DNA from: a virus
Lineage: Duplodnaviria > Caudoviricetes
IMG/VR virus record: IMGVR_UViG_3300044627_000701
Location: 1-63,077 of that record
Strand: one strand, 5' to 3'
DNA: 63,077 nt
Part shown: positions 26,567 through 41,320 of the stretch, one piece after another
Layout of the letters: every line of letters starts with the position of its first letter
How positions within the stretch are numbered: the first letter of the stretch is position 1
Made by a program: the position numbers and the translations under genes
Notes under the pieces: model-generated
What the model was told of the DNA's origin: nothing
Database searches by the model: none
The model's input: only the letters and a program-made list of their open reading frames with translations

Positions 26567-26580
26567 CGTACACGTGTACG
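26567..26580. promoter_or_regulatory. Palindrome GTACACGTGTAC, copy 4
   Basis: CGTACACGTGTACG upstream of ORF 26603. Confidence 0.7.
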
Positions 26581-26602
26581 CTAACTGAGAAGGGACAAGA
26601 CA

Positions 26603-26785
26603 ATGGGTAAAGTCATCAAGCCTGTGAACCTGACGCAACGTGTGTGGGACCGCATGTCAAGGCGCGAGAAGGAGTTCATCGTCGAGCACGAGCGTATGCA
26701 CGAGAAGTTCCGCCAACGTGCGGGCTGCGGGCATATGAGCGCAGAAGAGCTGTTTCAAGCTATTATGGAGCAAACCAATGCCTGA
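26603..26785 (+). CDS. Early hypothetical protein
   Basis: 60 aa; RBS GAAGGGA. Confidence 0.6.
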   Translation: MGKVIKPVNLTQRVWDRMSRREKEFIVEHERMHEKFRQRAGCGHMSAEELFQAIMEQTNA

Positions 26786-26972
26786 GTGCATATCCTGCGG
26801 AGAGACATACTCCGAGCGCCGCGCCCTGCTGGGCTACAACACCTGCCTGTCGTGTGGCGACTTCGCTGCGCGCGCAGTGAAATGGTGCAGCGCACCACTA
26901 AACAAGAGCAACTACGTTGTTATCACCAACAAGGCAGAGCTGACGATGCTCAACCCGAAGAGGACAAGCTGA
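26778..26972 (+). CDS. Small C4 zinc-finger protein (DksA/TraR-like finger)
   Basis: CISCG...ERRALLG...CLSC. Confidence 0.65.
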   Translation: MPECISCGETYSERRALLGYNTCLSCGDFAARAVKWCSAPLNKSNYVVITNKAELTMLNPKRTS

Positions 26973-27340
26973 TGGGCTACCGTAGCGATGTGACGTTCGC
27001 CTTCTATGCGAACCCCAACAAATTAGAGATGTTCCCAGCTATCAAGCTATGGGTAGAGGAGAACTGGCCGAGGGAGGCAGACCCCTTCATCGAAAGCCGT
27101 GAGGGCATCATCACCGTCAAGTATGATGACGTGAAGTGGTATGATGACTTCGACTACGTGAAGGACGTATGGGCTGCCATCGAGCGGTTCGAGGCAGCGT
27201 TCAATACCGAGGATTTCGAAACGCATTGCGCCTGCTGGGAGTATGCCCGTGTGGGCGAAGAGAGAACCGATCTCGACTCTGGTGGTTCCGCCTACCACCA
27301 CTACCGTGTAGGTATCAGTGTCAGCATCACCGTCGACTGA
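26972..27340 (+). CDS. Acidic early hypothetical protein (MGYRSDV...)
   Basis: ATG overlaps the previous stop (TGATG); RBS GAGGA. Confidence 0.7.
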   Translation: MGYRSDVTFAFYANPNKLEMFPAIKLWVEENWPREADPFIESREGIITVKYDDVKWYDDFDYVKDVWAAIERFEAAFNTEDFETHCACWEYARVGEERTDLDSGGSAYHHYRVGISVSITVD

Positions 27341-27343
27341 ACC

Positions 27344-27372
27344 TTGACATTGTCCACCTACTCTGCTACAAG
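27344..27372 (+). promoter_or_regulatory. Sigma70-type promoter
   Basis: TTGACA-17 bp-TACAAG with an extended TG. Confidence 0.7.
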
Positions 27373-27421
27373 AAGAGGGTGAGGCGGGAACCAACCCGCC
27401 CCGGCCAACTAAGCAACCAAA

Positions 27422-27441
27422 TACCGTACACGTGTACGGTA
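27422..27441. promoter_or_regulatory. Palindrome GTACACGTGTAC, copy 5 (20 bp)
   Basis: TACCGTACACGTGTACGGTA between the promoter and the AAA gene RBS. Confidence 0.75.
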
Positions 27442-27463
27442 AACACGAAAGAGCAAACACAAC

Positions 27464-28540
27464 ATGACTTCAATCAACTTTGGTTCGCGTGTCTCTCTCA
27501 AGGAGGCAGCGCAGCTGATCGCTGCGGTCGGCACAACAAACAACGTCATGCTGCGTGGCCCCAAGGGCATCGGCAAGTCGAGCATCCTACCCATGATGCG
27601 TGAGTATCTGGGTGACGAATACGAATACGCCTACTTCGACATGACGTCGAAGGCCGAGGGTGACGTGGCTATCCCGTTCCCTGACAAGGAGGCGGGCGTT
27701 ATGCAGTTCTTCACGAACGAGGCGCTCAAGCTGCACACCGGCAAGCCCGTGGTTATCATGTTGGACGAGCTGGCCAAGGCACCGCGCAGTATCCAGAACA
27801 TGGTGCTGCCCATGTTGGAGAACCCAAGGCGCGTTGCAGATAAGCGCCTGCCTGATGGCACTATGGTCATTATCACTAACAACCTATCGGAAGAGGGGCT
27901 GGGCGATACGTTCATGGCGCACACCCTGAACCGCATGACTGTGCTGGAGGTGCGTCAACCTTCTGTCGAGGAGTGGCTGGTGTGGGGTGCTGGCAGCGGC
28001 ATCCATCCTGTTGTGCTGGCGTGGGTGAACCAGACACCCACTGCACTGGCATCGTTCCGCGATGACGACTTCGACGCAAGCAACCCCTACGTCGATAACC
28101 CCAAGCGTGTGCAGGTAGGCCAAGTCGTGACTCCGCGTTCGCTGGAGAAGGCATCGCACATCGTGTGGCAGCGTGAGAAGTTCAGCGAGAACACCCTGCT
28201 GGCTGCGCTTATCGGCACCATCGGTGAGCCTGCGGCGCGGGACATGCAGCACTACATCGCCTTCCAAGACGAGCTGCCTAGCCGTGAGCTTATCCTCAAG
28301 GCACCTGATACCGCACCTATCCCTACGTCCGTAGGTGCAATCATCACCCTGCTCTTCAACCTTGAGCGCGCAGTGGAGGCCGACACCATGTCGGCCATCA
28401 TGAAGTATGTGTCTCGCATGGAGGCCGAGCATCAGGCTGTGTTCTGCACCAGCCTCGCACGTAGCAAGACCAAGCAGACCATCGCCTTCCGCAATGGCGA
28501 CTTCACCAAGTGGGCGGCTGAGAACGCAGATATTTTGTAA
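27464..28540 (+). CDS. MoxR/dynein-like AAA+ ATPase
   Basis: Walker A GPKGIGKS, Walker B IMLDE, LNR and TPRSLE motifs. Confidence 0.85.
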   Translation: MTSINFGSRVSLKEAAQLIAAVGTTNNVMLRGPKGIGKSSILPMMREYLGDEYEYAYFDMTSKAEGDVAIPFPDKEAGVMQFFTNEALKLHTGKPVVIMLDELAKAPRSIQNMVLPMLENPRRVADKRLPDGTMVIITNNLSEEGLGDTFMAHTLNRMTVLEVRQPSVEEWLVWGAGSGIHPVVLAWVNQTPTALASFRDDDFDASNPYVDNPKRVQVGQVVTPRSLEKASHIVWQREKFSENTLLAALIGTIGEPAARDMQHYIAFQDELPSRELILKAPDTAPIPTSVGAIITLLFNLERAVEADTMSAIMKYVSRMEAEHQAVFCTSLARSKTKQTIAFRNGDFTKWAAENADIL

Positions 28541-28593
28541 TCCGTCAAGCCCTAGCGCCGCGCGCTTAGGGATAACACACTAGGAGCAAACCA

Positions 28594-29454
28594 ATGAGCA
28601 TCGCATCATCCTCCATGCTTGTGGAGTTGAACATCAGCGTCTGGACCGGCAACAAGGTGGACAAGACGGTGACCCGACAAGTGACCGACGACAACAGCGC
28701 CACCACGGACGCAGGTCAGTTCCGTAAGAACCTCACGGCAGGCTCGTCTCTCCGCAAGGAGCTGGCCGACTATGCTGCGGCTTGTCGCCTACGACACAAC
28801 CAGTTGACGATGGCATGGTCTGACCGTGGCCCGCGCCTGCTGCCCACCTCCCTGTTCTTCGACTACAAGTCAGAGATGAACGGTCGGCAGACCTACTTCA
28901 CGGACAAGGCCGAGGCGTTCTTTCGTGACTACCCACGCCTGCTGGCCGACGCACCCAAGCATCTGGGTGCGCTGTATAATCCAGAGGACTACCCGTCCGT
29001 CGAGGAAGTGCGTAGCAAGTTCGGCTACCGTCTGGTGTTTACCCCGGTGCCTGAGTCGGGTGACTTTCGCTTAGACCTACCACAGCAGGAGATGGCGGAG
29101 ATGCGTCGCCAATACGATGACGCCTTCGATGTCCGGCTGGCCGAGGCCATGCGTGAGCCATGGGACAGGCTGCACACCACGATCAGTGCGATGACCGACA
29201 AGCTGGTCAAGGTCGAGGCTGCGCCGGATGGGACGGTGACCCGCTGGCACGATACGTTCATCGGCAACGCCGCCGAGCTGTGCAAGATGCTGACCCACTT
29301 GAACCTGACCAAGGACCCCAAGCTGGAGCAGGCGCGGCGCGACCTTGAGAAGGCCATCGCTGGTGTGGACATCGACGATGTGAAGGAAGACGCAGGTGTT
29401 CGCACCGACCTGAAGGACAAGCTGAATACCATGCTCAAGCAATATGAGTGGTGA
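28594..29454 (+). CDS. Helical protein between the AAA and vWA genes (DUF3150-like, from recall)
   Basis: 286 aa; LG.LYN.EDYP motif; gene context. Confidence 0.6.
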   Translation: MSIASSSMLVELNISVWTGNKVDKTVTRQVTDDNSATTDAGQFRKNLTAGSSLRKELADYAAACRLRHNQLTMAWSDRGPRLLPTSLFFDYKSEMNGRQTYFTDKAEAFFRDYPRLLADAPKHLGALYNPEDYPSVEEVRSKFGYRLVFTPVPESGDFRLDLPQQEMAEMRRQYDDAFDVRLAEAMREPWDRLHTTISAMTDKLVKVEAAPDGTVTRWHDTFIGNAAELCKMLTHLNLTKDPKLEQARRDLEKAIAGVDIDDVKEDAGVRTDLKDKLNTMLKQYEW

Positions 29455-29475
29455 TAACAACGTAGGAGCAAGACC

Positions 29476-30705
29476 ATGCAACCAGAACGCAAACTGAAGA
29501 AGGCCAAGATCGACGTGATGCGGTCGCAGCTACCGGGCCTGCGCCTGTGGGCTGGACTCATGTCGGTGGGCAAGACGAGCCTGTGCGACAATACCTCATC
29601 GGCATATACCAATGGGCGCGATGAGGTGTACGGCACTGCCTTCGTCGAGAAGCTGTCCGTAGCGGAGCTGTCCTTCGTGTGTCTGCATGAGGCTGTCCAC
29701 AAGGGGCTTCGGCACCTGACTACATGGCGCAAGCTGTTTGAGGCTGACCCCCAGCTTGCCAACATCGCTTGTGACTACGTGGTTAACCGCATCATCGTGA
29801 AGGCCGACCCCGGCGAGAGCGTGTGCAAGTTCCCGCGCAACCCAGATGGCACCCGCATGGGGCTGTATGACGAGCGGTTCGACGGCATGAGCGCCAAGCA
29901 AATCTTCGACATACTGAAGAAGGAGCAGGAGCAGGAACCCGACGGCCAAGGTGAGGGCAAGCCCGGTGAGCAAGGCGCAGGCCAACCGAGCTTTGACGAG
30001 CATGGCTGGGATGATGCCAAGGAGATGGACAAGGCAGACCGTGACGCGCTGGACAAGGAGATTGACCATGCCCTGCGCCGTGGTGAGGCCGAGGCCAAGC
30101 GGTGTGGCGCTGGCAAGGGTGATATGCCTGCCGAGGTAGGTGAGTTGCTGCGTCCTGCCGTCGACTGGCGCGCTGCATTGCGGGAGTTCTTCAACAGCCA
30201 CTGTGCTGCCAAGGACGAGGCGTCATGGCGCAGGCTCAACCGTCGCTTCGTGGGTATGGATGTGTATCTGCCTTCGATGCACGGCGAGTCGCTTGGCCAT
30301 GCTGTCGTAGGTGCAGACTTGTCCGGCTCGATGTGGTCAGGCGACCCGTCACCCATCAGCCGCATCTTCACCGAGGTGGTTGAGATTGCCAACACTACCA
30401 AGCCCGACAAGCTGGACGTGCTGTATTGGGATACGCAAGTAGCCGGCCACGATAGCTTTACCCAAGGTGACTACGATAGCCTGCTGTCCAAGGTGCGACC
30501 CAAGGGCGGTGGTGGTACGAGCGCCGAGTGCGTCCCCGTCTACATGGCCGAGCATAAGATCAAGCCTGACTGCATCATCATGGTGACGGACGGCCACGTC
30601 TTCGGCGGCTGGGGCAGCAACTACTCCGCCCCTGTGCTGTGGGTAATCATCGACAACCCTACGGTCGAAGCCCCTACGGGCAAGACCTTGCACGTAACCC
30701 TGTGA
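29476..30705 (+). CDS. Metallopeptidase (HExxH) + vWA domain protein (DUF2201-like)
   Basis: AYTNG, HEAVH, NIACDY.VN, MIDAS DLSGS, GGGGT and TDG motifs. Confidence 0.85.
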   Translation: MQPERKLKKAKIDVMRSQLPGLRLWAGLMSVGKTSLCDNTSSAYTNGRDEVYGTAFVEKLSVAELSFVCLHEAVHKGLRHLTTWRKLFEADPQLANIACDYVVNRIIVKADPGESVCKFPRNPDGTRMGLYDERFDGMSAKQIFDILKKEQEQEPDGQGEGKPGEQGAGQPSFDEHGWDDAKEMDKADRDALDKEIDHALRRGEAEAKRCGAGKGDMPAEVGELLRPAVDWRAALREFFNSHCAAKDEASWRRLNRRFVGMDVYLPSMHGESLGHAVVGADLSGSMWSGDPSPISRIFTEVVEIANTTKPDKLDVLYWDTQVAGHDSFTQGDYDSLLSKVRPKGGGGTSAECVPVYMAEHKIKPDCIIMVTDGHVFGGWGSNYSAPVLWVIIDNPTVEAPTGKTLHVTL

Positions 30706-30714
30706 GGAGAGAAC

Positions 30715-30918
30715 ATGACTGACGAACCCAAGGTGTTCACGCTGCTGCGTGAGTACGACGAGAGCAAGTCCAAGCTGCGCGCTCTTGAGGAGGAGCTTAA
30801 CCGAGAGTGCGCGGCCTATGGCCGAGACGTGCTTGGCCTGTGGGGCTTCAGCCCCAGCCACCTGCGCCAGCGCCTGTATGCGCTGGGCCTAACGAAGAAG
30901 GAGCAGACCAATGGGTAA
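30715..30918 (+). CDS. Hypothetical protein
   Basis: 67 aa; RBS GAGGAG. Confidence 0.65.
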   Translation: MTDEPKVFTLLREYDESKSKLRALEEELNRECAAYGRDVLGLWGFSPSHLRQRLYALGLTKKEQTNG

Positions 30919-31105
30919 GAAAGGTTACACCTACTTCAGCACCCTTGATTGGGCGGGGCTGAAGCGCTGGGTGAAGTACGGCACCGACACCGATACCGAC
31001 TGGCGAGACCTCGCTATGGTGCTGGTGGAGCGCGCCGACGAGGAGCGCGAGGACGCTTACGATACTGGACGTGGTGAGGGTTACCACCACTGGGATAGCA
31101 ACTGA
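30911..31105 (+). CDS. Hypothetical protein
   Basis: 64 aa; RBS GAAGGAGCAGAC. Confidence 0.65.
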   Translation: MGKKGYTYFSTLDWAGLKRWVKYGTDTDTDWRDLAMVLVERADEEREDAYDTGRGEGYHHWDSN

Positions 31106-31116
31106 GGAGCAAGCAC

Positions 31117-31968
31117 ATGTTTATCGACGACATCAAGAACGAGTACTTCTACCCGATGGGTGGCACCAGCGTGGTGCTGGAGTTCAACAAAAACTGGGTA
31201 AGCTATGGCAAGGAGGGCACCGCCGTTGTGCATCCTACCATGGCCCGGTTCATCGACGCCCTGCGGGTGAAGCGCCCGACGTGGCGGTTCAAGAGTACCG
31301 AGCGCGTCTACGATAACGAGAGACAAGAGCTGCGTAACTTCGACGTGTATGATGGCGACGAGCAGCTTGGCCGTGTGTGGACCGAGCGCCACTGGCGCAC
31401 GGGTGAGGACCGCTACTGCCTGAACAACCACCGTGTGGAAGCAAGCAGGCAGCGTGGTAGCGGCAGCTTCAGCACCAAGGTGGCCGTTGCCACTAAGAAG
31501 GTACTGGACTCGTTCGGCGTCAAGTCACTCGACGAGCTGGCCGTGGATGCAGCCAAGAAAATCACTGGTGTTCTTAACAATGTGTACAGCAACACTAGCT
31601 TCACATACTCATCCTCCAAGCAGAAGGCGATGAAAGCCCTAGCTACATACATCGAGGACAATTGGGATACACTCAAGTCGTACACCACTGGCTGCGATCA
31701 TATCGACCTGCGAGAACTGCGTGAGCAGCACGAGGCAGTTTCCAAGGCGTATCACTCACTGACGAACGACGGGGCCGCCACCTTGTTCATGCACGGTGAT
31801 CGGATGGTGATGCAACGCCATGACAAACCGTCTAGTGTTGTTACCTTCGATCAGCTGACTGAGAAGCAGCGCGCCAACTTGGGTATGCTGAAGCTCATGG
31901 AAGACAAGGCGTTCGTCGCTGGTGTTGGTATGCGCGTAGATAGCGAGACGTTTTTCTTGCTCGACTAA
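31117..31968 (+). CDS. Hypothetical protein
   Basis: 283 aa; RBS GAGGAGCAAGC. Confidence 0.75.
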   Translation: MFIDDIKNEYFYPMGGTSVVLEFNKNWVSYGKEGTAVVHPTMARFIDALRVKRPTWRFKSTERVYDNERQELRNFDVYDGDEQLGRVWTERHWRTGEDRYCLNNHRVEASRQRGSGSFSTKVAVATKKVLDSFGVKSLDELAVDAAKKITGVLNNVYSNTSFTYSSSKQKAMKALATYIEDNWDTLKSYTTGCDHIDLRELREQHEAVSKAYHSLTNDGAATLFMHGDRMVMQRHDKPSSVVTFDQLTEKQRANLGMLKLMEDKAFVAGVGMRVDSETFFLLD

Positions 31969-31969
31969 C

Positions 31970-31997
31970 TTGACACTGTCTCTGGGTTTGGTATCGT
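31970..31997 (+). promoter_or_regulatory. Sigma70-type promoter
   Basis: TTGACA-16 bp-TATCGT with TG. Confidence 0.55.
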
Positions 31998-32018
31998 CAT
32001 CTCCCCAAGGAGCAAACG

Positions 32019-32687: not shown

Positions 32688-32762
32688 GACCAGTGGTGCT
32701 GTCCGAGCGCGCCAAGGCGCACCTGTGGCAGGCCAAAGCAACAGTAGCGAGGGAGCAGGCCG

Positions 32763-32864
32763 ATGCATGACCCGATACTTTTCTGGACGGTGGTCGCACT
32801 TATTGTAGTGCCTAGCTACATACTGATTAAGCGGGCTATCGACCGCGATGGGGATAAGCCATGA
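32763..32864 (+). CDS. Small TM protein (33 aa; absent from the ORF track)
   Basis: MHDPILFWTVVALIVV...; RBS GGGAG; stop overlaps the polymerase ATG. Confidence 0.45.
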   Translation: MHDPILFWTVVALIVVPSYILIKRAIDRDGDKP

Positions 32865-34675
32865 CCATCCTGACCGTAGACTTCGAGACCTACTACAGCC
32901 AGCAGTTCAGCCTGTCGAAGATCACAACGGAGGAGTATGTCCGTGACTCGCGGTTTGAGGCTATCGGCGTATCCGTAAAGGTGGACGACGAGCCGGCGCA
33001 GTGGTTCTCCGGCACTGCCAAGCAGACCAAGGCTTGGCTGGATAGGTTTGACTGGGCCAACAGCATCGCCATCGCGCACAACGCGATGTTCGACATGGCC
33101 ATCATGAACTGGCGGTTCGACATCCGACCCAAGCGCATAGTGGATACCCTGTCCATGCTGCGGGCTATCGACGGACCTGATGCGGGTAACAGCCTAGCCA
33201 AAGCTGCCGAGCGGTACGGGCTGGGCGTCAAGGGCACCGAGGTCGTCAATGCGCTGGGCAAGCGCCGGCTGGACTTCACGCCGGAGGAGTTAGCGGCCTA
33301 CGGGGATTACTGTATCAACGACACCGAGATGACGTACAAGCTGGCGATGAAGTTGCTGGAGGGGTTCCCCAAGGAGGAGCTTCAGCTAATCGACCTGACT
33401 ATGCGCATGTTTACCGAGCCGGTTCTGTATCTCGAAAAGGCCGATTTGGAGTTACACTTATCCGAGGTGAAGGCGCATAAGGAAGCGCTCATGGCCAAGA
33501 TGAACTACGACAAGGCCGAGCTGATGAGTAACCCCAAGCTGGCCGAGCTTCTGGAGTTCCATGGCGTTGTTCCCCCTAGGAAGATCAGCCCGACGACGGG
33601 CAAGGAGACCTTTGCCTTTGCCAAGAACGACGAGGCGTTCAAGGAACTGCTGGAGCATGAGAACGAGCAGGTGCAGGCCATTGTGGCTGCGCGGCTAGGG
33701 GTAAAGTCTACACTGGAGGAGACCCGGACCGAGCGGTTCATCGGTATCTCAGAGCGTGGTCTGCTGCCTGTTCCCCTGCGCTATTACGCAGCCCACACCG
33801 GGCGGTTCGGTGGCGACGATAAGGTCAACCTCCAGAACCTGCCGCGCAAGTCGCCGCTGAAGAAGGCCATCAAGGCACCTCCCGGCTACGTGGTTATCGA
33901 CTGCGACTCCAGCCAGATCGAAGCGCGCACCTTGGCGTGGCTGGCTGGGCAGTGGGACTTGGTTGAGGCGTTCGACAAGGGTGAGGATGTCTACAAGATC
34001 ATGGCGTCATCCATCTACGGTGTGCCTATCGAAGAGGTCACCGACTCGCAGCGGTTTGTGGGTAAGACTACCATCCTAGGTGCAGGCTACGGCATGGGCC
34101 CGGCTAAGTTCCAAGCGCAGTTGAAGACCTTCGGTGTCACCATGGAGCTGGACGAGTGCAAGCGCATCATCGCGGTGTACCGGGAGACTTACCCCTACAT
34201 CCCCAAACTGTGGCGGGACACGGGTGACGCGCTGGAGTCCTTGGTAGTCAATAACCTTACGTCGATTGGTGAGGGCATGAAGCTGGCTGTTGCTGGGGGT
34301 ATCGTACTCCCCAACCTGTTGCGCCTCCGCTACCCCAACCTGCGGCTTATCCTGAACGACAAGGGCAAGCAGGAGATGGTGTACGACACCAAGAAGGGCC
34401 GAGCGGTTATCCCTACGCGGATATACGGCGGCAAGTGCGTCGAGAATATCTGCCAAGCCTTGGCCCGCATCATCATCGCTAACCAGATGCTGATGATCGC
34501 CCGGAGGTACAAGGTAGCCATGACCGTCCACGATAGCGTGGTGGTGGTAGCACCGCAGGAGGAAGCTAACGAGGCGCGTGCGTTCGTTGAGCAGTGTATG
34601 CGTATCCGCCCGAAGTGGGCAGCGGCGTTGCCGTTAAACTGTGAGAGCAAGATGGGAGCAAGCTATGGCGGGTGA
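32861..34675 (+). CDS. DNA polymerase family A with 3'-5' exonuclease
   Basis: ExoI DFET, AHNAMFD, YCIND, HTGR, motif A DSSQIEAR, motif B RFVGKTTILGAGYG and motif C VHDS. Confidence 0.93.
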   Translation: MTILTVDFETYYSQQFSLSKITTEEYVRDSRFEAIGVSVKVDDEPAQWFSGTAKQTKAWLDRFDWANSIAIAHNAMFDMAIMNWRFDIRPKRIVDTLSMLRAIDGPDAGNSLAKAAERYGLGVKGTEVVNALGKRRLDFTPEELAAYGDYCINDTEMTYKLAMKLLEGFPKEELQLIDLTMRMFTEPVLYLEKADLELHLSEVKAHKEALMAKMNYDKAELMSNPKLAELLEFHGVVPPRKISPTTGKETFAFAKNDEAFKELLEHENEQVQAIVAARLGVKSTLEETRTERFIGISERGLLPVPLRYYAAHTGRFGGDDKVNLQNLPRKSPLKKAIKAPPGYVVIDCDSSQIEARTLAWLAGQWDLVEAFDKGEDVYKIMASSIYGVPIEEVTDSQRFVGKTTILGAGYGMGPAKFQAQLKTFGVTMELDECKRIIAVYRETYPYIPKLWRDTGDALESLVVNNLTSIGEGMKLAVAGGIVLPNLLRLRYPNLRLILNDKGKQEMVYDTKKGRAVIPTRIYGGKCVENICQALARIIIANQMLMIARRYKVAMTVHDSVVVVAPQEEANEARAFVEQCMRIRPKWAAALPLNCESKMGASYGG

Positions 34676-35123
34676 GATTGAAGACTTGGAAAACACGCTG
34701 GGGTACGACCCCCTACCTGCGCGGCCCGGACGCCCGAATAAGCGCGGACGCCGGAAGAAGCTTGTGTGTAAGCAAGGCCACCCATTTGTAGAGGGTAACA
34801 TTAGCTATAGGGCGAACGGTACGCGGTTTTGCACGACCTGCCAGAAGGCTTCTAGGCGGGCGTGGCTTCTTAAAAACCCGGACTACAACGCGAAGCACTA
34901 CGCAGCGAAAAACGGGCGCGTTATTAGTGATGAGATTAAACTCAGGTTCCGCTGGGACGGCCAAGATGGGCGAGTCGTAGGTATGGACGTACTCAAGCTG
35001 AAGGAGACAGACTGGGTTATCGCAGCCGACTTCCTGAAAGACGTAATCCGTTTAACCCAGAATTGCTACGATGACGTCCTGAAGGCGAAGCATGTCGACA
35101 AAGGAGCAGATCATGGCGGGTAG
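34665..35123 (+). CDS. Protein with an HNH-associated C-H-C-C zinc finger
   Basis: CKQGHPF..GN......R.CTTC motif; likely ATG at 34665 with RBS GGGAG. Confidence 0.55.
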   Translation: MAGEIEDLENTLGYDPLPARPGRPNKRGRRKKLVCKQGHPFVEGNISYRANGTRFCTTCQKASRRAWLLKNPDYNAKHYAAKNGRVISDEIKLRFRWDGQDGRVVGMDVLKLKETDWVIAADFLKDVIRLTQNCYDDVLKAKHVDKGADHGG

Positions 35124-35535
35124 GCCGAAATACGAAAGCGCGGCTGATCGTGGCAACCAACACTACGTCCTGAGTAAGCTGGGGCGGGCGTTCGGGTTGG
35201 AGGCAGAGGTGCCCACCGAGGAGTATGCGTTCTATGATGGCATGTTCTCGTTTAGTGACCGCAAGTGTGTGGTCGAGGTGAAAACCAGAAAAAACGAGCG
35301 CAGCCGATACCCTACCTACATGCTTAGCAAAAATAAGTACGACGCACTGTGTGACGTAACCAGTCACAGCATGGATGCGCTTCTGGCTGTGCAGTGGACC
35401 GACCAGCTTGGCGTTATTCAACTGCCCACTGAACACACCGTAAGCACAGGTGGGCGCTACGACCGGGGCGACCCGATGGACGTTGAGCAGGTAGTTCTAA
35501 TCCCCACCATTAACTTCAAACGCGTACCAGAATAG
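35113..35535 (+). CDS. PD-(D/E)xK nuclease-fold protein
   Basis: YD...VVEVKTR motif; RBS AAGGAG. Confidence 0.7.
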   Translation: MAGRPKYESAADRGNQHYVLSKLGRAFGLEAEVPTEEYAFYDGMFSFSDRKCVVEVKTRKNERSRYPTYMLSKNKYDALCDVTSHSMDALLAVQWTDQLGVIQLPTEHTVSTGGRYDRGDPMDVEQVVLIPTINFKRVPE

Positions 35536-35545
35536 GAGCAAGCAA

Positions 35546-36151
35546 ATGACCGAATACACATTCACGCAAGACTGGTTCAGCCACAACATCCCTGTGTGGG
35601 AGCAGCTGGTTACGTTGTTACCGGGTACGCCGGGGCAGCGTAACTTCCTTGAAATCGGTTCGTTCGAGGGCCGCAGCGCCGTCTGGATGGCCGAGAACAT
35701 GATGACCGAGGGTGATAACCTTCGTTGTATCGACACATGGGAAGGCAGCGAGGAGCACAGCGCTGAGACCGTGCAGGGTATTGAAGATCGGTTCCGGCAT
35801 AATCTGGTTGTCGCGGCAAAGAAGTTCCCGCGCCGCCGTATCTTCCAGCACAAGTCCGCATCCGTGCAGGAGCTTGCTCACTGGTTGGTGGAAGCTCCCG
35901 AAGACCACCCGACTTTTGACTTCATCTACATCGACGGCAGCCATACTGCCAAGGATGTGCTGACCGACGCTTGCATGGCGTGGCCGCTGCTGAAGCAGGG
36001 TGGCTTGATGGTGTTTGACGACTACCTGTGGGGTGATAGCCGCGACATTCTCCATCGCCCTAAGATGGCTACGGACTTCTTTGTGAACACCTTTGCGGAA
36101 TCACTCGACATCGTTCACATCGGCCACCAGTTTGCGGTGCGTAAGAAGTGA
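35546..36151 (+). CDS. Class I SAM-dependent methyltransferase (Methyltransf_24-like)
   Basis: LEIGSFEGRS, IDTW, FDFIYIDGSH and GG..VFDDY motifs. Confidence 0.85.
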   Translation: MTEYTFTQDWFSHNIPVWEQLVTLLPGTPGQRNFLEIGSFEGRSAVWMAENMMTEGDNLRCIDTWEGSEEHSAETVQGIEDRFRHNLVVAAKKFPRRRIFQHKSASVQELAHWLVEAPEDHPTFDFIYIDGSHTAKDVLTDACMAWPLLKQGGLMVFDDYLWGDSRDILHRPKMATDFFVNTFAESLDIVHIGHQFAVRKK

Positions 36152-36333
36152 CGGGTAACATTGTCAGTCGCCCCCGCAAGCCTGCTGGCTGGTGGACGCC
36201 TGAAAAGCGTCAGGTGGCTTGGGATATGTACGTAGAGGGTAAGCCCTTTGAGGAGATCGCTGAGCACTTTGGCGTGACCCTCGCCGCCGCTGCGCGGCAG
36301 GTGTACCAGCACAAGAAGGAGCAAACGAAGTGA
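36148..36333 (+). CDS. Small helix-turn-helix protein
   Basis: WT.E...FEEIAEHFGVTLAAA motif. Confidence 0.65.
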   Translation: MTGNIVSRPRKPAGWWTPEKRQVAWDMYVEGKPFEEIAEHFGVTLAAAARQVYQHKKEQTK

Positions 36334-37112
36334 GTGACGAATACAAGGTGACGCCGGTCGAGACCAAGCGCCCGAGCCTGATGATCGCTACTCCCATGTA
36401 CGGCGGCATGTGCACGGGTGCGTATGTGCAAGGTCTGCTGTTCACGGTCGCCAAGATGCGTGAGCTGGGGGTGCATGTGGCGTGGTGCCAGATCACCAAC
36501 GAGAGCCTTATCACCCGCGCCCGTAACGAACTGGCGCGTGTCTTCCTTGAGAGCGGCCACGACTACCTGATGTTCATCGACGCTGACATTGGCTTCGACG
36601 CTAACGCTGTGGCTATGCTGCTAGCGGGAGACAGGGACATCGCGTGCGGCATCTACCCCAAGAAGGAAGTGAACTGGGATAGCGTCAAGAAGGCGGCGCG
36701 TGAGGGTAAGAACGACCTGCACGACCACGCTGGTGCGTTCGTCTTCAACATGGTTGGCAGCGGGGATGTCGAGACCGATCCAGAGGGCTTCATCGAGGTC
36801 CGCCATGGCGGTACCGGCTTCATGCTTATCAAGCGCGGTGTGTTTGAACACCTTGCGCCGCATGTACCTACCTATCGGGTGTCGTCGTTCTTTGACCCGG
36901 AGAAGGGGGAGTATGCCAAGCCTTTGACCCATGAATTTTTCGCAACGAGTATCGACGACAGTGGGGCGTTGCTGTCCGAAGATTATCACTTTTGCGAACT
37001 GTGGCGGAAACACGGGGGTAAAATCCATGCCCACCCCTTCATCCGTCTTACCCACACCGGCACGTATACATACGACGGTGACATACTGAAAAGCGGCGGG
37101 AACCTAAAGTAA
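36330..37112 (+). CDS. GT-A fold glycosyltransferase-like protein (replication module)
   Basis: IATPMYGG, ESLITRARN, LMFIDADI, GTGFMLIKR and SEDYHFC motifs. Confidence 0.75.
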   Translation: MSDEYKVTPVETKRPSLMIATPMYGGMCTGAYVQGLLFTVAKMRELGVHVAWCQITNESLITRARNELARVFLESGHDYLMFIDADIGFDANAVAMLLAGDRDIACGIYPKKEVNWDSVKKAAREGKNDLHDHAGAFVFNMVGSGDVETDPEGFIEVRHGGTGFMLIKRGVFEHLAPHVPTYRVSSFFDPEKGEYAKPLTHEFFATSIDDSGALLSEDYHFCELWRKHGGKIHAHPFIRLTHTGTYTYDGDILKSGGNLK

Positions 37113-37122
37113 GGAGCAGACC

Positions 37123-37848
37123 ATGACTAAACGAGCTACACAAGACTACGACTACGACCAGATCAGAGCTTTTTTGGAAGCCCACCCCGGAGACGAGCTT
37201 AAGGTGGTTGGTTATAAGCTGGGCATACCCACCAAGGCAGTCTGGCGTGTTTTCCAGTTGGATGCGCGCAAGGAAGACCCAGACTACGCTCCGCGTACCA
37301 AGACGAGCCTGATACTGAAGTATATGCAGGCGCACCCCCGGTGTGGTAACCTCCGCATTGCCGAAGTCATAGGCGCTAGTCGGGCGCTTGTGAACGACAC
37401 GCGCAGGCTGTGGAAAGACCTAATCGAAGACCCGATCACTGCTCCGCACTACGCGCCGGTCAAGCCGGCCAAGCGGTGTATTGAGTCTGCTCCCATGTAC
37501 CGGGTATTACAGTCGGAGCTGGAGTCTAACCCCATCTACCGGGCCCAGCAGCCGAAGTCCGAGCCCGTCGCCTGCGAGGGCAACACCATCGAGCAAGTGC
37601 TGGTCGAGCGTGGCAAGGACTACGGCGACTATGCTAGCAAGGCGCAGTTCATTCAGGGTGTGAAGTATCTTATGCGGAGCAGCCCCAGCTGGGAAGCCAT
37701 GGATGCTGATATGCGTGAGAGTATGGAGATGATCGCCCACAAGATGGGGCGTGTCGTGTACGGCGACCCGACGCACAAGGATAACTTCCTTGATATCGCT
37801 GGTTACGCCAAGCTGGTCGCAGACCGGCTTCAAGACAACGCAAACTGA
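37123..37848 (+). CDS. Protein with HTH-like N-terminus and DUF6378-like C-terminal domain
   Basis: ERGKDYGD...HKMGR...GD...DNFLDIAGYA motif. Confidence 0.65.
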   Translation: MTKRATQDYDYDQIRAFLEAHPGDELKVVGYKLGIPTKAVWRVFQLDARKEDPDYAPRTKTSLILKYMQAHPRCGNLRIAEVIGASRALVNDTRRLWKDLIEDPITAPHYAPVKPAKRCIESAPMYRVLQSELESNPIYRAQQPKSEPVACEGNTIEQVLVERGKDYGDYASKAQFIQGVKYLMRSSPSWEAMDADMRESMEMIAHKMGRVVYGDPTHKDNFLDIAGYAKLVADRLQDNAN

Positions 37849-37858
37849 GGAGGAAGCT

Positions 37859-38161
37859 ATGTCATGGTACAACCCATGGGGCGAAGCCCGCGAACTACGA
37901 GTGAAGCTGGCCGAGGCTGAGCAGACTTATGTTAGGCTGACTAAGCAGATCAAAGAGCTTGAGACCGTCAATAAAGAGCTTAAGTTCATCAGTAAAGAAA
38001 ACGAGCGTGAGCTTGACCTGCTTGAGTTCGATTTGGGAGAACTTAAAGAGGCATATGCAAAGCTTCATGAACGGACCGTTGGCTTAGAGAAAGCATTGGC
38101 TGAAGCCAGTAAGAATGATATACGTGACGGCAACGGTCGTTTTAGGAAAGCTAAGAAGTAA
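37859..38161 (+). CDS. Coiled-coil hypothetical protein
   Basis: ATG at 37859 with RBS GAGGAGG; C-terminal RD.NGRF.K motif. Confidence 0.65.
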   Translation: MSWYNPWGEARELRVKLAEAEQTYVRLTKQIKELETVNKELKFISKENERELDLLEFDLGELKEAYAKLHERTVGLEKALAEASKNDIRDGNGRFRKAKK

Positions 38162-38826
38162 TGACAGCGTGGTCCTATAGCAGCATCAAAACCTTCGACC
38201 AATGTCCGAAGAAGTACTTCCACCTGAAGGTGGTCAAGGACGTCAAGGACGAGGCGGGGGAAGCTGCTGACTATGGGACCGCCGTCCACGAAGCGGCTGA
38301 GTTATTCATCACGCAGGGGGCACCCATCCCCGAGAAGTTCGCCTTCATGCGCCCCATCGTGGAACCACTGGCGAAGAAGCAAGGCACCAAGTACGCCGAA
38401 ATCAAGATTGGCGTGTCCAAGGCGCTGGAGCCGCGAGGCTTTTTTGACAAGGACGTCTGGTATCGGGGTATCGCTGACTTGCTCATCGTGAACGGTAGCA
38501 AGGCGTGGCTGGTGGACTACAAGACAGGCAAGAACGCCAAGTACGCGGACATCAAACAGCTGGACCTGCTGGCGGGAGCCATCTTCGTCCACTTCCCCAA
38601 GGTAGAGACCATCAACTCTGCTCTCCTGTACGTTGTCAGTCAGGAGATGCCGAGGAAGATTCACCACAGGCAGCACCTGCCCACCTACATGGGTGTGTTC
38701 GATGACCAGCTGGACCGGCTGGAGGCGGCTAAGGAGAACGGCGTGTGGAACGCTAACCCCAGCGGGCTGTGTGGTTGGTGCCCGGTCGAGACGTGCGAAC
38801 ACTGGCGACCACGGAGGCGTGGATGA
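38161..38826 (+). CDS. PD-(D/E)xK (Cas4/RecB-like) exonuclease
   Basis: WSYS...CP, GTAVH, GIADL, VDYKTGK, QL and C..C.....C motifs. Confidence 0.85.
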   Translation: MTAWSYSSIKTFDQCPKKYFHLKVVKDVKDEAGEAADYGTAVHEAAELFITQGAPIPEKFAFMRPIVEPLAKKQGTKYAEIKIGVSKALEPRGFFDKDVWYRGIADLLIVNGSKAWLVDYKTGKNAKYADIKQLDLLAGAIFVHFPKVETINSALLYVVSQEMPRKIHHRQHLPTYMGVFDDQLDRLEAAKENGVWNANPSGLCGWCPVETCEHWRPRRRG

Positions 38827-39026
38827 AACTGCTGAGCCTGAAGGCAAGCCTTGATGGCTACCACCAGAGTAGGGCTAACAAGCACGGCTACCTGTACTAC
38901 CTTACCCGAGTAATCGGGCCGAGCCAAGCGTGGCCGGATGTGGTAGAAGCCAAGTCGATTTCCACGGGGCGCACCGTCACACTGTCGGCCCCGTTCTTCG
39001 AGACGAAGGAGGTAGAGGGTGGCTAG
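38823..39026 (+). CDS. Hypothetical protein
   Basis: ATGA overlap; RBS GGAGG. Confidence 0.55.
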   Translation: MKLLSLKASLDGYHQSRANKHGYLYYLTRVIGPSQAWPDVVEAKSISTGRTVTLSAPFFETKEVEGG

Positions 39027-39303
39027 GGATTACAAGTCGGAGTACGAAAAGTACCAAGGCACCCCGGAGCAGAAGAAGAACCGGGCCAAGCGCAACGCTG
39101 CCCGAGCCAAGCTCATGAAGACCGGCAAGGTCAAGAAGGGCGATGGCATGGACGTGGCCCACGTCCGCGCGTTTGATAAGGGCGGCACCAACGGTGATGG
39201 TCTGCGGGCCGAGCCGAAGTCTAAGAACCGCTCGTTCAAGCGGGACAGCAAAGGCAACCTCGTGTCGGAGGTTAGCGCACGAGAGCGTAAGCGCTCGAAG
39301 TAA
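39019..39303 (+). CDS. HNH-like small basic protein
   Basis: RDYK.EY...KGDG.DV.H...KGG...NR motifs. Confidence 0.7.
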   Translation: MARDYKSEYEKYQGTPEQKKNRAKRNAARAKLMKTGKVKKGDGMDVAHVRAFDKGGTNGDGLRAEPKSKNRSFKRDSKGNLVSEVSARERKRSK

Positions 39304-39321
39304 CAAGCTAGGAGCAAACTA

Positions 39322-40863
39322 GTGCAGATTATCGAAGACAAGGCGCTGCTCGTCAGCGTTGACGACCCGTCTGTTATTACATCTGTAGTAACAAAGAGCG
39401 CTAACACCAGTGAGGGTGTGTTGGTGAACTGGGGGCACAAGGAAGCGGAAGCCTTGGTGAAGCTGGGGCTGGATGCCCCGTCGCCCATCCTGCGCGACTA
39501 TAAGTGGACCGGGCGCTACACCCCCTTCGACCACCAGAAGGTTACGTCTTCGTTCCTGTCGCTGCGCGAGCGGGCGTTCTGTTTCAACGAGCAAGGTACG
39601 GGTAAGACCGCCAGCGTCATCTGGGCTGCCGACTACCTGATGAAGAAGGGGCTTGTGAAGCGCGCCCTTGTGCTGTGCCCGCTGTCCATCATGAAGTCGG
39701 CATGGCAGCAAGACGTCTTTAAGTTTGCCATGCACCGGTCGTGTAGCGTGGCACACGGTAGCGCCAAGCAGCGTGAGAAGGTTATCCAAGCCGGGGCAGA
39801 CATTGTCGTCATCAACTTTGATGGCGTGGCGACCGCGCTAGATGCAATCATGGCTGGGGGGTTCGACCTCATCGTCGTGGACGAGGCGTCGGCCTACAAG
39901 AACGCCCAGACCAACCGCTGGAAAATCCTGAACAGGATCGTGAAAAATACTAGTCCCCGCATCTGGATGCTTACGGGTACGCCGGCAGCACAATCACCAC
40001 TGGATGCCTACGGTCTGGCGCGGCTCTTGGAGACACCCAAGTGCCCGAAATATTTTGGGCCTTTCCGCGACAGCGTGATGATGTCGGTCAGCAAGTTCAA
40101 GTGGGCACCTAAGCCCCACGCGAACAAGGTCGTGCATGAGATGCTTCAGCCGGCGATACGGTTCGAGAAGAAGGACTGCCTTGACCTGCCAGACGTTGTC
40201 CACGTCGAGCGGGAGGTGGAGATGACCCCCCAGCAGAAGAAGTACTACAACCAGCTCAAGAGCCAGCTGCTCATCGAGGCAGCGGGTGAAGAGGTCAGCG
40301 CCGTCAACGCCGCCGGACGGGTGAACAAGCTACTCCAGATCAGCGGAGGCGCGGTCTACACGGACGATGGGCAGGTGCTGGAGTTCGACGTCTCCAACCG
40401 TATCACGGCGGTGCTGGAGATTATCAACGAGACGTCCAACAAGGTGCTGGTCTTTGTACCCTTCACCCACACCATCGACATACTGGTAGCCAGACTGGAG
40501 AAGGAAGGCATCAGCTGCGCTCTCATTAGTGGTAAGGTGCCGGTCAATCGCCGCAGCGATATCGTTACCAAGTTCCAGAACGACCCCGACCCAAAGGTGC
40601 TGGTTATCCAGCCGCAGGCCGCCAGTCACGGCCTTACCCTTACGGCAGCAGACACAATCATCTGGTACGCGCCTGTAACATCGGTGGAGACCTACCTCCA
40701 AGCCAACGCCCGCATCAACCGTCCCGGCCAGAAGAACGCCATGACGATCATGCACATCCGGGGCAGCGAGGTGGAGTCCCGCCTGTACAAGATGCTTCAG
40801 GGTAACATCGAAAACCACGAACGGTTGATCGACCTGTACAGAAATATACTTGACACGGTCTAA
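39322..40863 (+). CDS. SNF2-like superfamily 2 helicase
   Basis: EQGTGKT, DEAS, LTGTP, HGLTLT and QANARINRPGQ motifs. Confidence 0.9.
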   Translation: MQIIEDKALLVSVDDPSVITSVVTKSANTSEGVLVNWGHKEAEALVKLGLDAPSPILRDYKWTGRYTPFDHQKVTSSFLSLRERAFCFNEQGTGKTASVIWAADYLMKKGLVKRALVLCPLSIMKSAWQQDVFKFAMHRSCSVAHGSAKQREKVIQAGADIVVINFDGVATALDAIMAGGFDLIVVDEASAYKNAQTNRWKILNRIVKNTSPRIWMLTGTPAAQSPLDAYGLARLLETPKCPKYFGPFRDSVMMSVSKFKWAPKPHANKVVHEMLQPAIRFEKKDCLDLPDVVHVEREVEMTPQQKKYYNQLKSQLLIEAAGEEVSAVNAAGRVNKLLQISGGAVYTDDGQVLEFDVSNRITAVLEIINETSNKVLVFVPFTHTIDILVARLEKEGISCALISGKVPVNRRSDIVTKFQNDPDPKVLVIQPQAASHGLTLTAADTIIWYAPVTSVETYLQANARINRPGQKNAMTIMHIRGSEVESRLYKMLQGNIENHERLIDLYRNILDTV

Positions 40864-40878
40864 GACCGCTGCTACACA
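40850..40878 (+). promoter_or_regulatory. Sigma70-type promoter with a palindrome in the spacer
   Basis: TTGACA-17 bp-TACACA with TG; the spacer contains CGGTCT-A-AGACCG. Confidence 0.7.
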
Positions 40879-40907
40879 AACAACCCCGGCAACCGAAGGA
40901 GCAAACC

Positions 40908-41318: not shown

Positions 41319-41320
41319 CC

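Follow-up and report, generated by a model that had tools for sequence, protein, structure and literature searches.

The window analyzed here is the whole 63,077-nt stretch of DNA from an uncultured lake phage (Caudoviricetes), with an early/replication arm on the plus strand and late genes on the minus strand. Fifteen ribosome-binding sites (RBS) at 26.7 to 40.9 kb, each 1 to 5 nt 5' of a plus-strand start codon, carry an extended Shine-Dalgarno (SD) sequence of the type AGGAGCA(A/G)(A/G)C, and they are exactly the stretches with 8 to 12 contiguous Watson-Crick or G-U pairs to a hairpin element at 45551 to 45567 in a putative small RNA (sRNA) gene. The first, GGAGCAAAC (26767 to 26775; nine contiguous pairs), lies 2 nt before ATG 26778 of a 64-amino-acid (aa) open reading frame (ORF), whose stop is overlapped as TGATG by the ORF at 26972. 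It is followed by GAGCAAAC (27451 to 27458; eight pairs), which lacks the first G of GGAG and stands 5 nt from ATG 27464 of an AAA ATPase gene, by AGGAGCAAAC (28582 to 28591; 10 pairs) before ATG 28594 of a 286-aa product with no assigned function, and by AGGAGCAAG (29464 to 29472; nine pairs, one of them G-U) before ATG 29476 of a DUF2201 metallopeptidase/VWA-like gene. Next come GAAGGAGCAGAC (30897 to 30908; 12 pairs, one G-U) before ATG 30911 (64 aa), GAGGAGCAAGC (31104 to 31114; 11 pairs, two G-U) before ATG 31117 (283 aa), and AAGGAGCAAAC (32007 to 32017; 11 pairs) before ATG 32019 of a 97-aa Hjc-like resolvase. The DNA polymerase gene has no SD of its own; its start at 32861 is overlapped as ATGA by a 33-aa ORF beginning at ATG 32763, which is preceded by GAGGGAGCAGGC (32749 to 32760; 12 pairs, three G-U). 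Within the 3' end of the polymerase gene, GGGAGCAAGCT (34654 to 34664; 11 pairs) precedes ATG 34665 (152 aa), and GGAGCAAG(C/T) occupies the equivalent place in 24 of the 44 polymerase loci examined. The remaining sites are AAGGAGCAGAT (35101 to 35111; 11 pairs, two G-U) before ATG 35113 of a PDDEXK_14 nuclease, AGGAGCAAGC (35534 to 35543; 10 pairs) before ATG 35546 of a methyltransferase, GAAGGAGCAAAC (36315 to 36326; 12 Watson-Crick pairs) before GTG 36330 (260 aa), AAGGAGCAGAC (37111 to 37121; 11 pairs) before ATG 37123 (241 aa), AGGAGCAAACT (39310 to 39320; 11 pairs) before GTG 39322 of an SNF2 helicase, and a second copy of GAAGGAGCAAAC (40895 to 40906) before ATG 40908 of a 136-aa gene with weak Mu Gam-like similarity (gene A), the conserved target, whose RBS changes along with the sRNA loop.

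All 15 sites were thus found where an earlier note on this DNA had placed them, and its claim of concentration in the early/replication arm held up as well. Of the 32 plus-arm starts, 15 have the core GAGCARR in the 25 nt before them, whereas none of the 46 minus-strand (late) starts does (Fisher P = 1.3e-7; both start sets were curated in the present analysis). At least nine contiguous pairs with the sRNA element were found at 14/32 and 2/46 starts, respectively. SD strength against a generic 16S tail is equal in the two arms (P = 0.50), but sRNA pairing is not (P = 1.2e-5), which bears out the view that ordinary SD selection does not account for the motif. GGAGCARRC occurs 21 times in the window, a count reached by 0 of 100 dinucleotide shuffles (mean, 3.33; standard deviation, 1.75; maximum, 10), and the pattern read backwards has one forward and one reverse match. 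Fifteen of the 21 matches are on the plus strand, 13 of them at 26767 to 40906; in 12 of these 13 a start codon follows 1 to 3 nt downstream, and the other, at 29325, is intragenic. Late genes use other spacers, as had been reported: GGAGACT at 16461, GGAGAG at 18502, GGAGAAA at 6827, GGAGGCG at 5722, GGAGCTAA at 17073, and GGAGCAC at 3274. The last had been named the closest late case; its spacer is as described, but AGGAGTAAAC (56981 to 56990, minus strand), before ATG 56979 of a 571-aa late-arm gene, is also close and had gone unlisted. No other late RBS reaches its 10 pairs with the sRNA element (one of them G-U), and it is possibly an additional sRNA target.

The gene-like sRNA unit is located at about 45548 to 45629 and combines a sigma70-like promoter, a 17-nt hairpin, and an intrinsic terminator, all on the plus strand. 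The hairpin, GGAAGTTTGCTCCTTCC (45551 to 45567), has the stem GGAAG/CTTCC and the loop TTTGCTC; its nucleotides 5 to 17 are the exact complement of GGAAGGAGCAAAC, and position 45555 on the plus strand marks the sole noncoding exact complement of the motif in the window. Read on the opposite strand, the element contains the motif with no start codon after it. The putative promoter (45515 to 45541) consists of TTGCGT (45515 to 45520), a 15-nt spacer, and GATAAT (45536 to 45541), and it shares sequence with the final codons and the stop codon of a 64-aa gene (45341 to 45535); a stricter scan of the window did not pick up this 15-nt-spacer promoter and returned none. The terminator (45581 to 45629), a GC-rich stem followed by seven T's, would end both the sRNA and the plus arm. 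An 83-nt stretch covering the sRNA has a predicted folding energy of −38.5 kcal/mol (z = −5.3), and no Rfam family matches it. The one RNA run yielded no transcript of the sRNA, only contigs of a 90 to 99% relative that cover parts of the 40.4- to 45.1-kb region.

Relatives were sampled through primase and polymerase proteins, that is, independently of the element itself. The identical 17-mer was present in 8 of 10 primase-fetched loci, next to three unrelated terminators, and the other two loci stop short of the sRNA site. Among 29 polymerase-fetched records it occurred with no mismatch in 13, with one mismatch in 1, and with three mismatches in 1; of those at least 90% complete, 7/9 had a match. 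The 17-mer is constant while both flanks are unalignable and the terminator sequences differ. In relatives the promoter reads TTTACG, 17 to 18 nt, and TATAnn, and promoter-like hexamers stand at a fixed distance in 33/39 distinct TTT-loop, 22/23 TTA-loop, and 6/10 other loci. The hairpin stem is invariant and therefore yields no structural covariation, and loop base G9, which pairs with the C after GGAG, had no bona fide variant in the relatives. The layout of the window recurs in G008, with 15 same-strand motif hits at 0.3 to 20.1 kb and the sRNA at 20.7 kb, and there are 13 such hits in G013 and 10 in G005; down to about 66% polymerase identity, motif sites are kept on the sRNA strand, upstream of the sRNA. 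Use at a given gene is not stable, the motif standing directly before the polymerase in only 3 to 4 of 44 polymerase loci. In G010 the loop is one base shorter (GGAAGCTGCTCCTTCC), and its sites are mostly GGAGCAAG, with no matching change.

Gene A lies about 4.65 kb upstream of the sRNA element in every locus, and its RBS changes with the loop. Gene A was on the same strand in 54 of 91 loci with the element (two starts unresolved), and the counts below are of distinct contexts. GGAGC is followed by A in 21/21 contexts with loop TTT (AAA, 15; AAG, 2; AAC, 2; AGA, 1; AAT, 1), by T in 12/12 with loop TTA, and by GAA in 2/2 with loop TTC, so that the base after GGAGC tracks the third loop base through three Watson-Crick states. 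The TTC loci are nested with a TTA locus (clade support, 100/99), which places one loop/RBS change between close relatives. TAA follows GGAG+N in 17/32 cases when N is C versus 0/25, 1/11, and 1/9 for the other bases; being specific to C, it is therefore not a stop codon artifact. The outer loop bases do not covary: at gene A, GGAGCTAG or GGAGCAGG accompanies loop ATA, and GGAGCATG accompanies loop AAA. These sequence comparisons provide good support for gene A as an sRNA target. Covariation was seen for gene A only: in the TTA-loop clade the matching GGAGCTAA is found only there, and the neighboring gene B keeps GGAGCAAA. A multigene regulon would therefore be a feature of the TTT-loop lineage, where the evidence for it is complementarity.

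Predicted duplex energies of −14 kcal/mol or below were obtained for 16/32 plus-arm RBS versus 1/46 others. Net of hairpin opening, 13 of the 15 sites have a cofolding ddG of −12 to −23 kcal/mol (late-gene median, −6.3 kcal/mol), the weak cases being 26778 (−9.5) and 32019 (−6.7). As an RBS sequence shared by about 15 genes complements a conserved sRNA, one sRNA may control the whole set, and we consider it probable, with appreciable room for doubt, that AGGAGCA(A/G)(A/G)C serves as the response element for an sRNA of this phage and that pairing most likely blocks ribosome binding. The RNA-RNA recognition proposed in the earlier note thus gains support from the complementary unit, the invariant core, the covariation at gene A, and the arm-specific pairing. 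Its argument from G-U wobbles fared less well: single-base variants of CAAAC across relatives do comprise 72 transitions and 36 transversions, but the argument is confounded because G-U-compatible changes are exactly the transitions, so that mutation bias alone could explain the excess, and at spacer position 2 the supposedly tolerated G is almost never present.

Under this model, an RNA of about 80 nt would be transcribed from the 3' end of the early/replication arm, from a host-type promoter overlapping the conserved 64-aa gene. Its 5' part would form a 5-bp hairpin with the 7-nt loop UUUGCUC and its 3' end the intrinsic terminator, and the loop plus the 3' half of the stem (GUUUGCUCCUUCC) resembles the 16S anti-SD (CUCCUU) but has a private extension. 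At about 15 cistrons of the replication module, the SD and its spacer could form 8 to 12 contiguous pairs with the RNA, ending 1 to 5 nt short of the start codons, and if all 15 sites function as targets, the RNA would most likely outcompete the 30S subunit there and reduce the module's translation. Several cistrons that lack the motif are translationally coupled to one that bears it and would be lowered together with it, and late genes, which use GGAGA or GGAGG, would escape.

A rather unlikely alternative is that the motif is merely a good start context, an SD with an A/C-rich unstructured spacer that reached many early genes as intergenic linkers were duplicated or underwent gene conversion, with the sRNA regulating only gene A or nothing; the other sites would then match the sRNA as copies of a common template. 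The linkers do look stereotyped (a TAA or TAG stop lies 8 to 9 nt before AGGAG at 28594, 29476, 31117, and 39322), motif use turns over between relatives, and covariation is limited to gene A. Moreover, another stereotyped RBS, with the SD inside a GTTACC..GGTAAC hairpin, is used by the Rhizobium relative RHph_TM3_14A, and the 33.9 kb of it that was examined contains no sRNA element. However, the same ribosomes read the late genes, the likely capsid and scaffold genes among them, and no late gene carries the motif; SD strength is equal in both arms. A start context also sits poorly with the retention of sites on the sRNA strand upstream of the sRNA and with the constancy of the loop base facing the C after GGAG.

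It is improbable that the hairpin at 45551 to 45567 has another job (such as stabilizing a 3' end, marking a processing site, binding a protein at the DNA level, or regulating host mRNAs by means of a generic anti-SD-like CUCCUU) and that its match to the RBS is incidental. Every loop class retains GCUCCUUCC, which would base pair with any strong AAGGAG SD. The TTA-loop clade has a second, single-stranded UUUCUCCUC matching AGGAGAA, which outnumbers every other 7-mer 5' of candidate starts in L087 and L070, two low-GC relatives. Nevertheless, the fixed 1- to 5-nt distance from motif to start, the strand bias, and the missing start codon after the motif on the opposite strand argue for function at the RNA level, the specific extension GUUUG fits the spacer of the phage sites, and covariation with gene A is seen at loop position 3.

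We give still less credence to a protein site, cut by a RegB-like endoribonuclease (at GGAG, assisted by ribosomal protein S1) or bound by a RegA-like translational repressor, RegA itself being a protein that recognizes loosely conserved sites. As described for T4 (PMC3014915), RegB cuts within GGAG and inactivates early but not late mRNAs, its strong sites having the 11-nt consensus GG*AGRAYARAA with an A-rich 3' part, and RegA represses many early mRNAs at translation initiation regions. The logic is the same: a private SD extension that late genes avoid would mark early mRNAs for posttranscriptional shut-off. Many small ORFs without a family could also encode an unfamiliar reader. In the phage studied here, though, C rather than a purine follows GGAG, and neither a RegB nor a RegA family member was found among 30 plus-arm proteins scanned against Pfam (E ≤ 0.01) or in PHROGs scans of 10 proteins. 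A protein would also leave unexplained the exact complement in a conserved RNA unit and the compensatory changes. The reader here is most likely an RNA. Chance or base composition, which may well produce the intragenic matches (29325, 37485, 48999 to 49124, 52658, and 54937 to 55030), is very improbable as a general explanation and was rejected for the RBS-linked sites by the shuffles, their placement before start codons, and their recurrence in relatives.

Regulation by a phage sRNA that pairs with RBS has partial precedents. In c4 antisense RNA, compensatory differences between RNA and target set the specificity between related phages. The loops of c4, from phages P1 and P7, pair around an RBS and block translation (PMC12197685). 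Both are phage-encoded small RNAs with loop pairing at an RBS, but they have no sequence relation; c4 is processed from its target's own transcript and acts on one operon (icd/ant) in the immunity circuit of temperate phages, whereas the sRNA described here appears to have its own promoter, the SD extension is common to about 15 cistrons, and no lysogeny function was identified in this phage. Firmicutes sRNAs with C/U-rich loops (RsaE/RoxS and RNAIII) pair an anti-SD-like loop motif with the SDs of many mRNAs. Those are host sRNAs with short generic UCCC motifs, in contrast to a phage sRNA with a 12- to 13-nt complement whose targets seem to have taken on one shared extended sequence. SviR, from the Vibrio cholerae satellite PLE, is likewise a mobile-element sRNA, acting in trans to lower translation of several phage and satellite targets, but it is satellite encoded and directed against another genome, its seed regions differ between targets, and the abstract describes no shared SD code (10.1101/2022.04.08.487710). 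Judged from its sequence, then, the sRNA-motif pair would be a new form of antisense control of ribosome-binding sites.

The window, a complete IMG/VR record of 63,077 bp with a 127-bp terminal repeat, carries minus-strand (late) genes at 0.5-24.0 kb and 45.6-63.1 kb, the second block including a 2751-aa ORF, and a plus-strand arm from 24.4 to 45.5 kb. Protein family and homology searches assigned to this plus-strand arm an AAA ATPase, a DUF2201 metallopeptidase/VWA protein, an Hjc-like resolvase, a family A DNA polymerase, two PD-(D/E)XK nucleases, a methyltransferase, a SNF2 helicase, an HTH protein, a DUF927 primase-helicase, and a 136-aa product with weak similarity to Mu Gam encoded at 40908 (gene A). 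No tRNA was found in a scan of the whole window. Cultured phages are distant, with best polymerase identities of 38% (Rhizobium phages) and 35% (Pseudomonas KPP25 group), and the phage collection searched contained nothing closely related at the DNA level. Relatives of the polymerase number at least 597, and 19 DNA runs labelled lake water metagenome, some of which may be its source, contain most of the window. Near the start of the arm, a palindrome with a perfect core, (A)CCGTACACGTGTACGG(T), occurs in five copies (24443-24464, 25650-25671, 26099-26120, 26563-26584, and 27421-27442), three of which lie about 20 nt upstream of the starts at 26141, 26603, and 27464; the palindromes are probably operators or promoter-linked sites of immediate-early units. 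A 760-bp noncoding stretch at 25380-26140, a possible origin or promoter cluster, has three 35-nt direct repeats, (TGTAAGAAA)ATGATAGTGGGCTGAGCGGTAGGACT, and many GTAAGA and TCTTAC words in both orientations.

The extended ribosome binding site (RBS) motif of the plus-strand arm is strongly enriched: GGAGCARRC was observed 21 times against 3.3 expected, a count reached in none of 100 shuffles, and its reversed control pattern occurs once per strand. Of the 13 plus-strand matches in 26.7-40.9 kb, 12 sit 1 to 3 nt upstream of a start codon, and the sites at 27451, 29464, and 35101 are one-off variants of the motif, each ahead of a start. Two matches outside the arm derive from short repeats with GGAGCAGG (plus strand) at 54900-55040, within a minus-strand gene for a Gly/Pro-rich repeat.

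The earlier note had claimed that the motif is concentrated in the early arm, that late genes use other spacers, and that ordinary Shine-Dalgarno (SD) selection does not account for the extension, and our results bear this out. Among 32 plus-arm and 46 minus-strand starts, called with a self-trained codon-usage caller and curated prior to motif analysis, GAGCARR lies ahead of 15 early starts and none of the late ones (Fisher p = 1.3e-7). Late genes instead have GGAGA or GGAGG, the closest late cases being those at 3274 (GGAGCAC) and 56979 (AGGAGTAAAC). A generic 13-nt bacterial 16S rRNA tail, taken as a stand-in for that of the host, paired equally well in the two arms, with median duplex energies of -7.4 and -6.8 kcal/mol (p = 0.50), and CAAAC does not match GUGAU of the 16S tail, with which the bases 3' of GGAG would pair in an extended SD/anti-SD duplex. 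The extension is thus not an ordinary SD effect, and since the same ribosomes read the late genes, a host preference is also argued against.

In noncoding DNA, the full complement of the motif occurs only at 45555 (plus strand), as part of GGAAGTTTGCTCCTTCC at 45551-45567. This element can form a 5-bp stem with the loop TTTGCTC, and its nucleotides 5 to 17 are the exact complement of GGAAGGAGCAAAC. It starts 15 nt past the stop of a conserved 64-aa gene (45341..45535, absent from the output of the codon-usage caller) and is followed 13 nt 3' by a strong intrinsic terminator (fold z = -5.3), an arrangement that we read as a predicted small RNA (sRNA). The window's own promoter-like site, with a 15-nt spacer, fails a stricter promoter scan; in its subgroup, the -35-like box is TTGCGT, and the window's -10-like box is GATAAT. 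Rfam 15 gave no match at or above the gathering threshold across the whole window. The only RNA run with matches to the window (X20) yielded contigs, 90 to 99% alike, that cover patches of 40389-45067 and nothing over 45148-47000, and such contigs cannot reveal a small RNA. The stop of the 2751-aa minus-strand gene (45628-45630) falls within the T run of the plus-strand terminator (45581-45629); as the minus strand has the terminator stem with no U run after it, we speculate that late read-through could yield an RNA antisense to the sRNA.

The upstream 64-aa protein is basic. Its gene overlaps the end of the primase gene by 11 nt and supplies, with its last codons, the -35 box of the predicted sRNA promoter. 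Residues Y8, W12, G18, F22, P24, R41, L42, G58, R60, and W62 are invariant, and a confident structure model (pLDDT 92.2) has a strand-helix-two-strand core that matched nothing in the PDB at E <= 0.001 (best, 0.56). A role as an RNA chaperone is unsupported.

The 15 plus-strand sites listed in the earlier note between 26767 and 40906 coincide precisely with maximal Watson-Crick/G-U runs against the element. They form 8 to 12 contiguous pairs with it, ending 1 to 5 nt ahead of the start, inside the 30S footprint. At least 9 pairs were seen for 14 of 32 early starts and 2 of 46 late starts. With an element string shifted 1 base to the right of 45551-45567, duplexes of -14 kcal/mol or lower were predicted at 16 of 32 early sites versus 1 of 46 late sites. 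When the cost of opening the hairpin was paid, the cofolding ddG at 13 of the 15 sites fell between -12 and -23 kcal/mol, with weak values at 26778 (-9.5 kcal/mol) and 32019 (-6.7 kcal/mol) and a late median of -6.3 kcal/mol.

Conservation was assessed in samples gathered through the primase or polymerase protein, independently of the element. The element site lies within 8 of 10 primase-gathered loci, the other 2 stopping short of it, and all 8 have an identical 17-mer, with three unrelated terminators among them. In 29 polymerase-gathered records (identity down to 63%), the 17-mer was present with no mismatches in 13, one mismatch in 1, and three mismatches in 1; it was found in 7 of the 9 records at least 90% complete, and the unmatched records are mostly fragments. 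G010, one of the two unmatched complete records, carries the same sRNA unit with a loop one base shorter, for which a clean compensatory pattern was not found. The bases flanking the 17-mer are essentially unconserved, and an intrinsic terminator is present at every sRNA locus. RNAalifold on 34 sRNA sequences returned an invariant 5-bp stem with no covariation, the terminators being too divergent to align.

A pattern scan of IMG/VR recovered 87 bona fide loci, defined as the element followed by a terminator, in which the first three loop bases are TTT (55), TTA (23), ATA (4), AAA (2), TTC (2), or TCA (1); other loop triplets matched only within coding sequence of unrelated contigs. A further scan for NVA loops gave 36 stretches, among which only the known TCA locus and three AAA-loop loci are bona fide, and no new gene A pairings. 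Variants of loop base G9 were found in 8 stretches, none of them in sRNA context. In bacterial and archaeal genomes, the TTT and TTA 17-mers occur in 65 scattered stretches, approximately the number we estimate by chance; 6 of these pass a crude terminator filter, and only L287 (an 8.3-kb contig from an Actinomycetota MAG bin) has a true sRNA context, a weak hint at best and not enough to name a host.

Relatives share a -35-like TTTACG, which overlaps the Gly-Leu-Arg codons ending the 64-aa gene, followed after 17 to 18 nt by a -10-like TATAnn or GATAAT; this promoter-like pair was found at 33 of 39 distinct TTT-loop loci, 22 of 23 TTA-loop loci, and 6 of 10 others. The TTT clade has its -10 box ending 6 to 9 nt ahead of the hairpin, which would put the seed at the 5' end of the RNA. 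The TTA-, ATA-, AAA-, TTC-, and TCA-loop clades (e.g., L133:3840-3930) have a longer predicted sRNA, with an extra 5' hairpin whose sequence varies by lineage and then single-stranded UUUCUCCUC. This segment is complementary to AGGAGAA, which is the most frequent 7-mer ahead of candidate starts in two low-GC relatives, L087 and L070.

Evidence that the element and the motif are connected comes from gene A, which sits roughly 4.65 kb upstream of the element wherever a locus is long enough to show it and whose RBS was placed by the tblastn N terminus and a generic SD, blind to the loop. A TTT loop is accompanied by GGAGC-A in 21 of 21 distinct contexts (AAA in 15), a TTA loop by GGAGC-TAA in all 12 (one of which takes its last A from the ATG), and a TTC loop by GGAGC-GAA in 2 of 2. 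Loop position 3 and the base after GGAGC are thus found in three Watson-Crick states, U:A, A:U, and C:G, a compensatory change between RNA and target. Since TAA after GGAG plus one base is found specifically where that base is C, upstream stop codons are no explanation. The TTC loci nest with the TTA locus L213 (RBS GGAGCTAAC) in one clade (100/99 support) of a tree of the adjacent 64-aa protein, which is short and poorly resolved elsewhere, and this nesting puts the number of separate compensatory changes at two or more. Covariation with the gene A RBS was not seen for the two outer bases of the loop. ATA loops co-occur with CTAG or CAGG at gene A, with failure in one of two contexts, and the AAA loop co-occurs with CATG, with failure in the single context; in these lineages, the neighboring gene B has GGAGCTA.

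The earlier note had further proposed that substitutions in the motif preserve G-U wobbles. Among 611 distinct GGAG-plus-five sites ahead of ORFs with 40 or more codons in 82 TTT-clade sequences, the commonest spacer is CAAAC (100 sites), and its single-base variants comprise 72 transitions and 36 transversions. At spacer positions 3 and 4, there is a strong preference for A or G (52 G versus 12 C or T); position 5 is of mixed composition (T 17, A 11, and G 9), and position 2 hardly varies. This tally is compatible with pairing but does not prove it, because the G-U-compatible changes are the transitions; the compensatory transversion at gene A (loop U to A, RBS A to U) is stronger evidence.

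The target set appears to differ among lineages. In the TTA-loop clade, a matching site is found at gene A only, and gene B retains GGAGCAAA, whereas in the TTT-loop clade the site class is expanded, with 15 sites in the window and same-strand clusters upstream of the sRNA of 15 in G008, 13 in G013, 10 in G005, and 4 to 6 in G011 and G012. Polymerase relatives at 62 to 65% identity lack the motif. The set of motif-bearing genes shifts among lineages, and the motif directly precedes the polymerase in 3 to 4 of 44 loci. In the window, a 33-aa ORF with a motif RBS (32763-32864, plus strand) shares an ATGA overlap with the start of the DNA polymerase gene, which lacks an SD of its own; the layout upstream of the polymerase varies among relatives. 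Most motif-less genes of the plus arm (26972, 32309, 32861, 36148, 38161, 38823, 39019, 41321, and 42269) overlap or abut an upstream motif-bearing cistron, and control could therefore spread through translational coupling.

Other phages present other start contexts. In L052, from G017 (polymerase 64% identical), the commonest 7-mer before starts is AGAGGTAAC(T), occurring 6 to 7 times in 21.8 kb, and the complete G017 record had no sRNA element at up to three mismatches. Rhizobium phage RHph_TM3_14A showed neither the sRNA element nor the motif class in the 33.9-kb stretch examined (L236; MN988472, 15630-49528), in which many early genes have the SD in or beside a GTTACC...GGTAAC hairpin right before the ATG; a single gene, that for the ATPase, has GGAGCAAACCAATG.

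Several other explanations were weighed. The motif might merely be a favorable start context spread by duplication of linkers, which accounts for the stereotyped linkers and for site turnover but leaves unexplained the avoidance of the motif by late genes and the invariant G9. Alternatively, the hairpin might have another function, or its targets might be host genes. A RegB- or RegA-like protein might read the motif, yet the C after GGAG and the final C make it unlike the T4 RegB/S1 cleavage consensus, GG*AGRAYARAA (PMC3014915), and none of 30 plus-arm proteins matched the RegB or RegA Pfam families at E <= 0.01. Together with the compensatory change at loop position 3 and gene A, this favors RNA-RNA over protein recognition, as the earlier note had argued. 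Chance is excluded for the RBS-linked sites.

An sRNA that pairs over the SD and spacer within the 30S footprint blocks initiation. Given that the predicted duplexes are strong at early sites and cover the SD and spacer inside this footprint, we propose that the sRNA acts as a translational repressor of the replication module, perhaps serving as a temporal switch, dosage control, or immunity-like silencing. The sRNA would pair with the SD and spacer up to 1 to 5 nt from the start, initiation would be blocked, and repression at motif-bearing entry sites would spread to motif-less cistrons by coupling. A broader reading, which we offer tentatively and consider possible though somewhat doubtful, is that the sRNA is a private "second anti-SD," mimicking the 16S 3' tail with extended specificity, and that replication-module genes adopted the matching SD, so that one RNA could compete with ribosomes for a whole message class and either set the switch from early to late expression or keep the module silent in a carrier state. 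The loop and its target RBS have co-diversified (UUU/AAA, UUA/UAA, and UUC/GAA), which on this reading would define mutually blind specificity groups among co-occurring lake phages.

Post-transcriptional global shut-off of early genes is known through the T4 proteins RegB and RegA, and phage antisense RNAs are known for single operons. In logic, T4 RegB/S1 is closest, and the proposed sRNA would be the RNA equivalent of shut-off by RegB and RegA. Among known systems, the c4 RNA of P1 and P7 comes closest: as proposed here, a loop pairs with an RBS (PMC12197685), and specificity differences are matched; the mutually blind loop/RBS groups would be comparable to P1/P7 heteroimmunity. A phage sRNA reading a shared extended SD was not described in the texts returned by a nonexhaustive full-text literature search or in the parts consulted of a 2025 review (PMC12197685). 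Comparative evidence points to what would be new here, an RNA that reads an SD extension common to a whole gene module in a large uncultured freshwater phage clade. If true, this would represent a simple, portable, and programmable gating of gene sets at the RBS and a new sRNA family with its target code built in, and extended RBS signatures would let annotators predict regulons and timing classes in uncultured phages.
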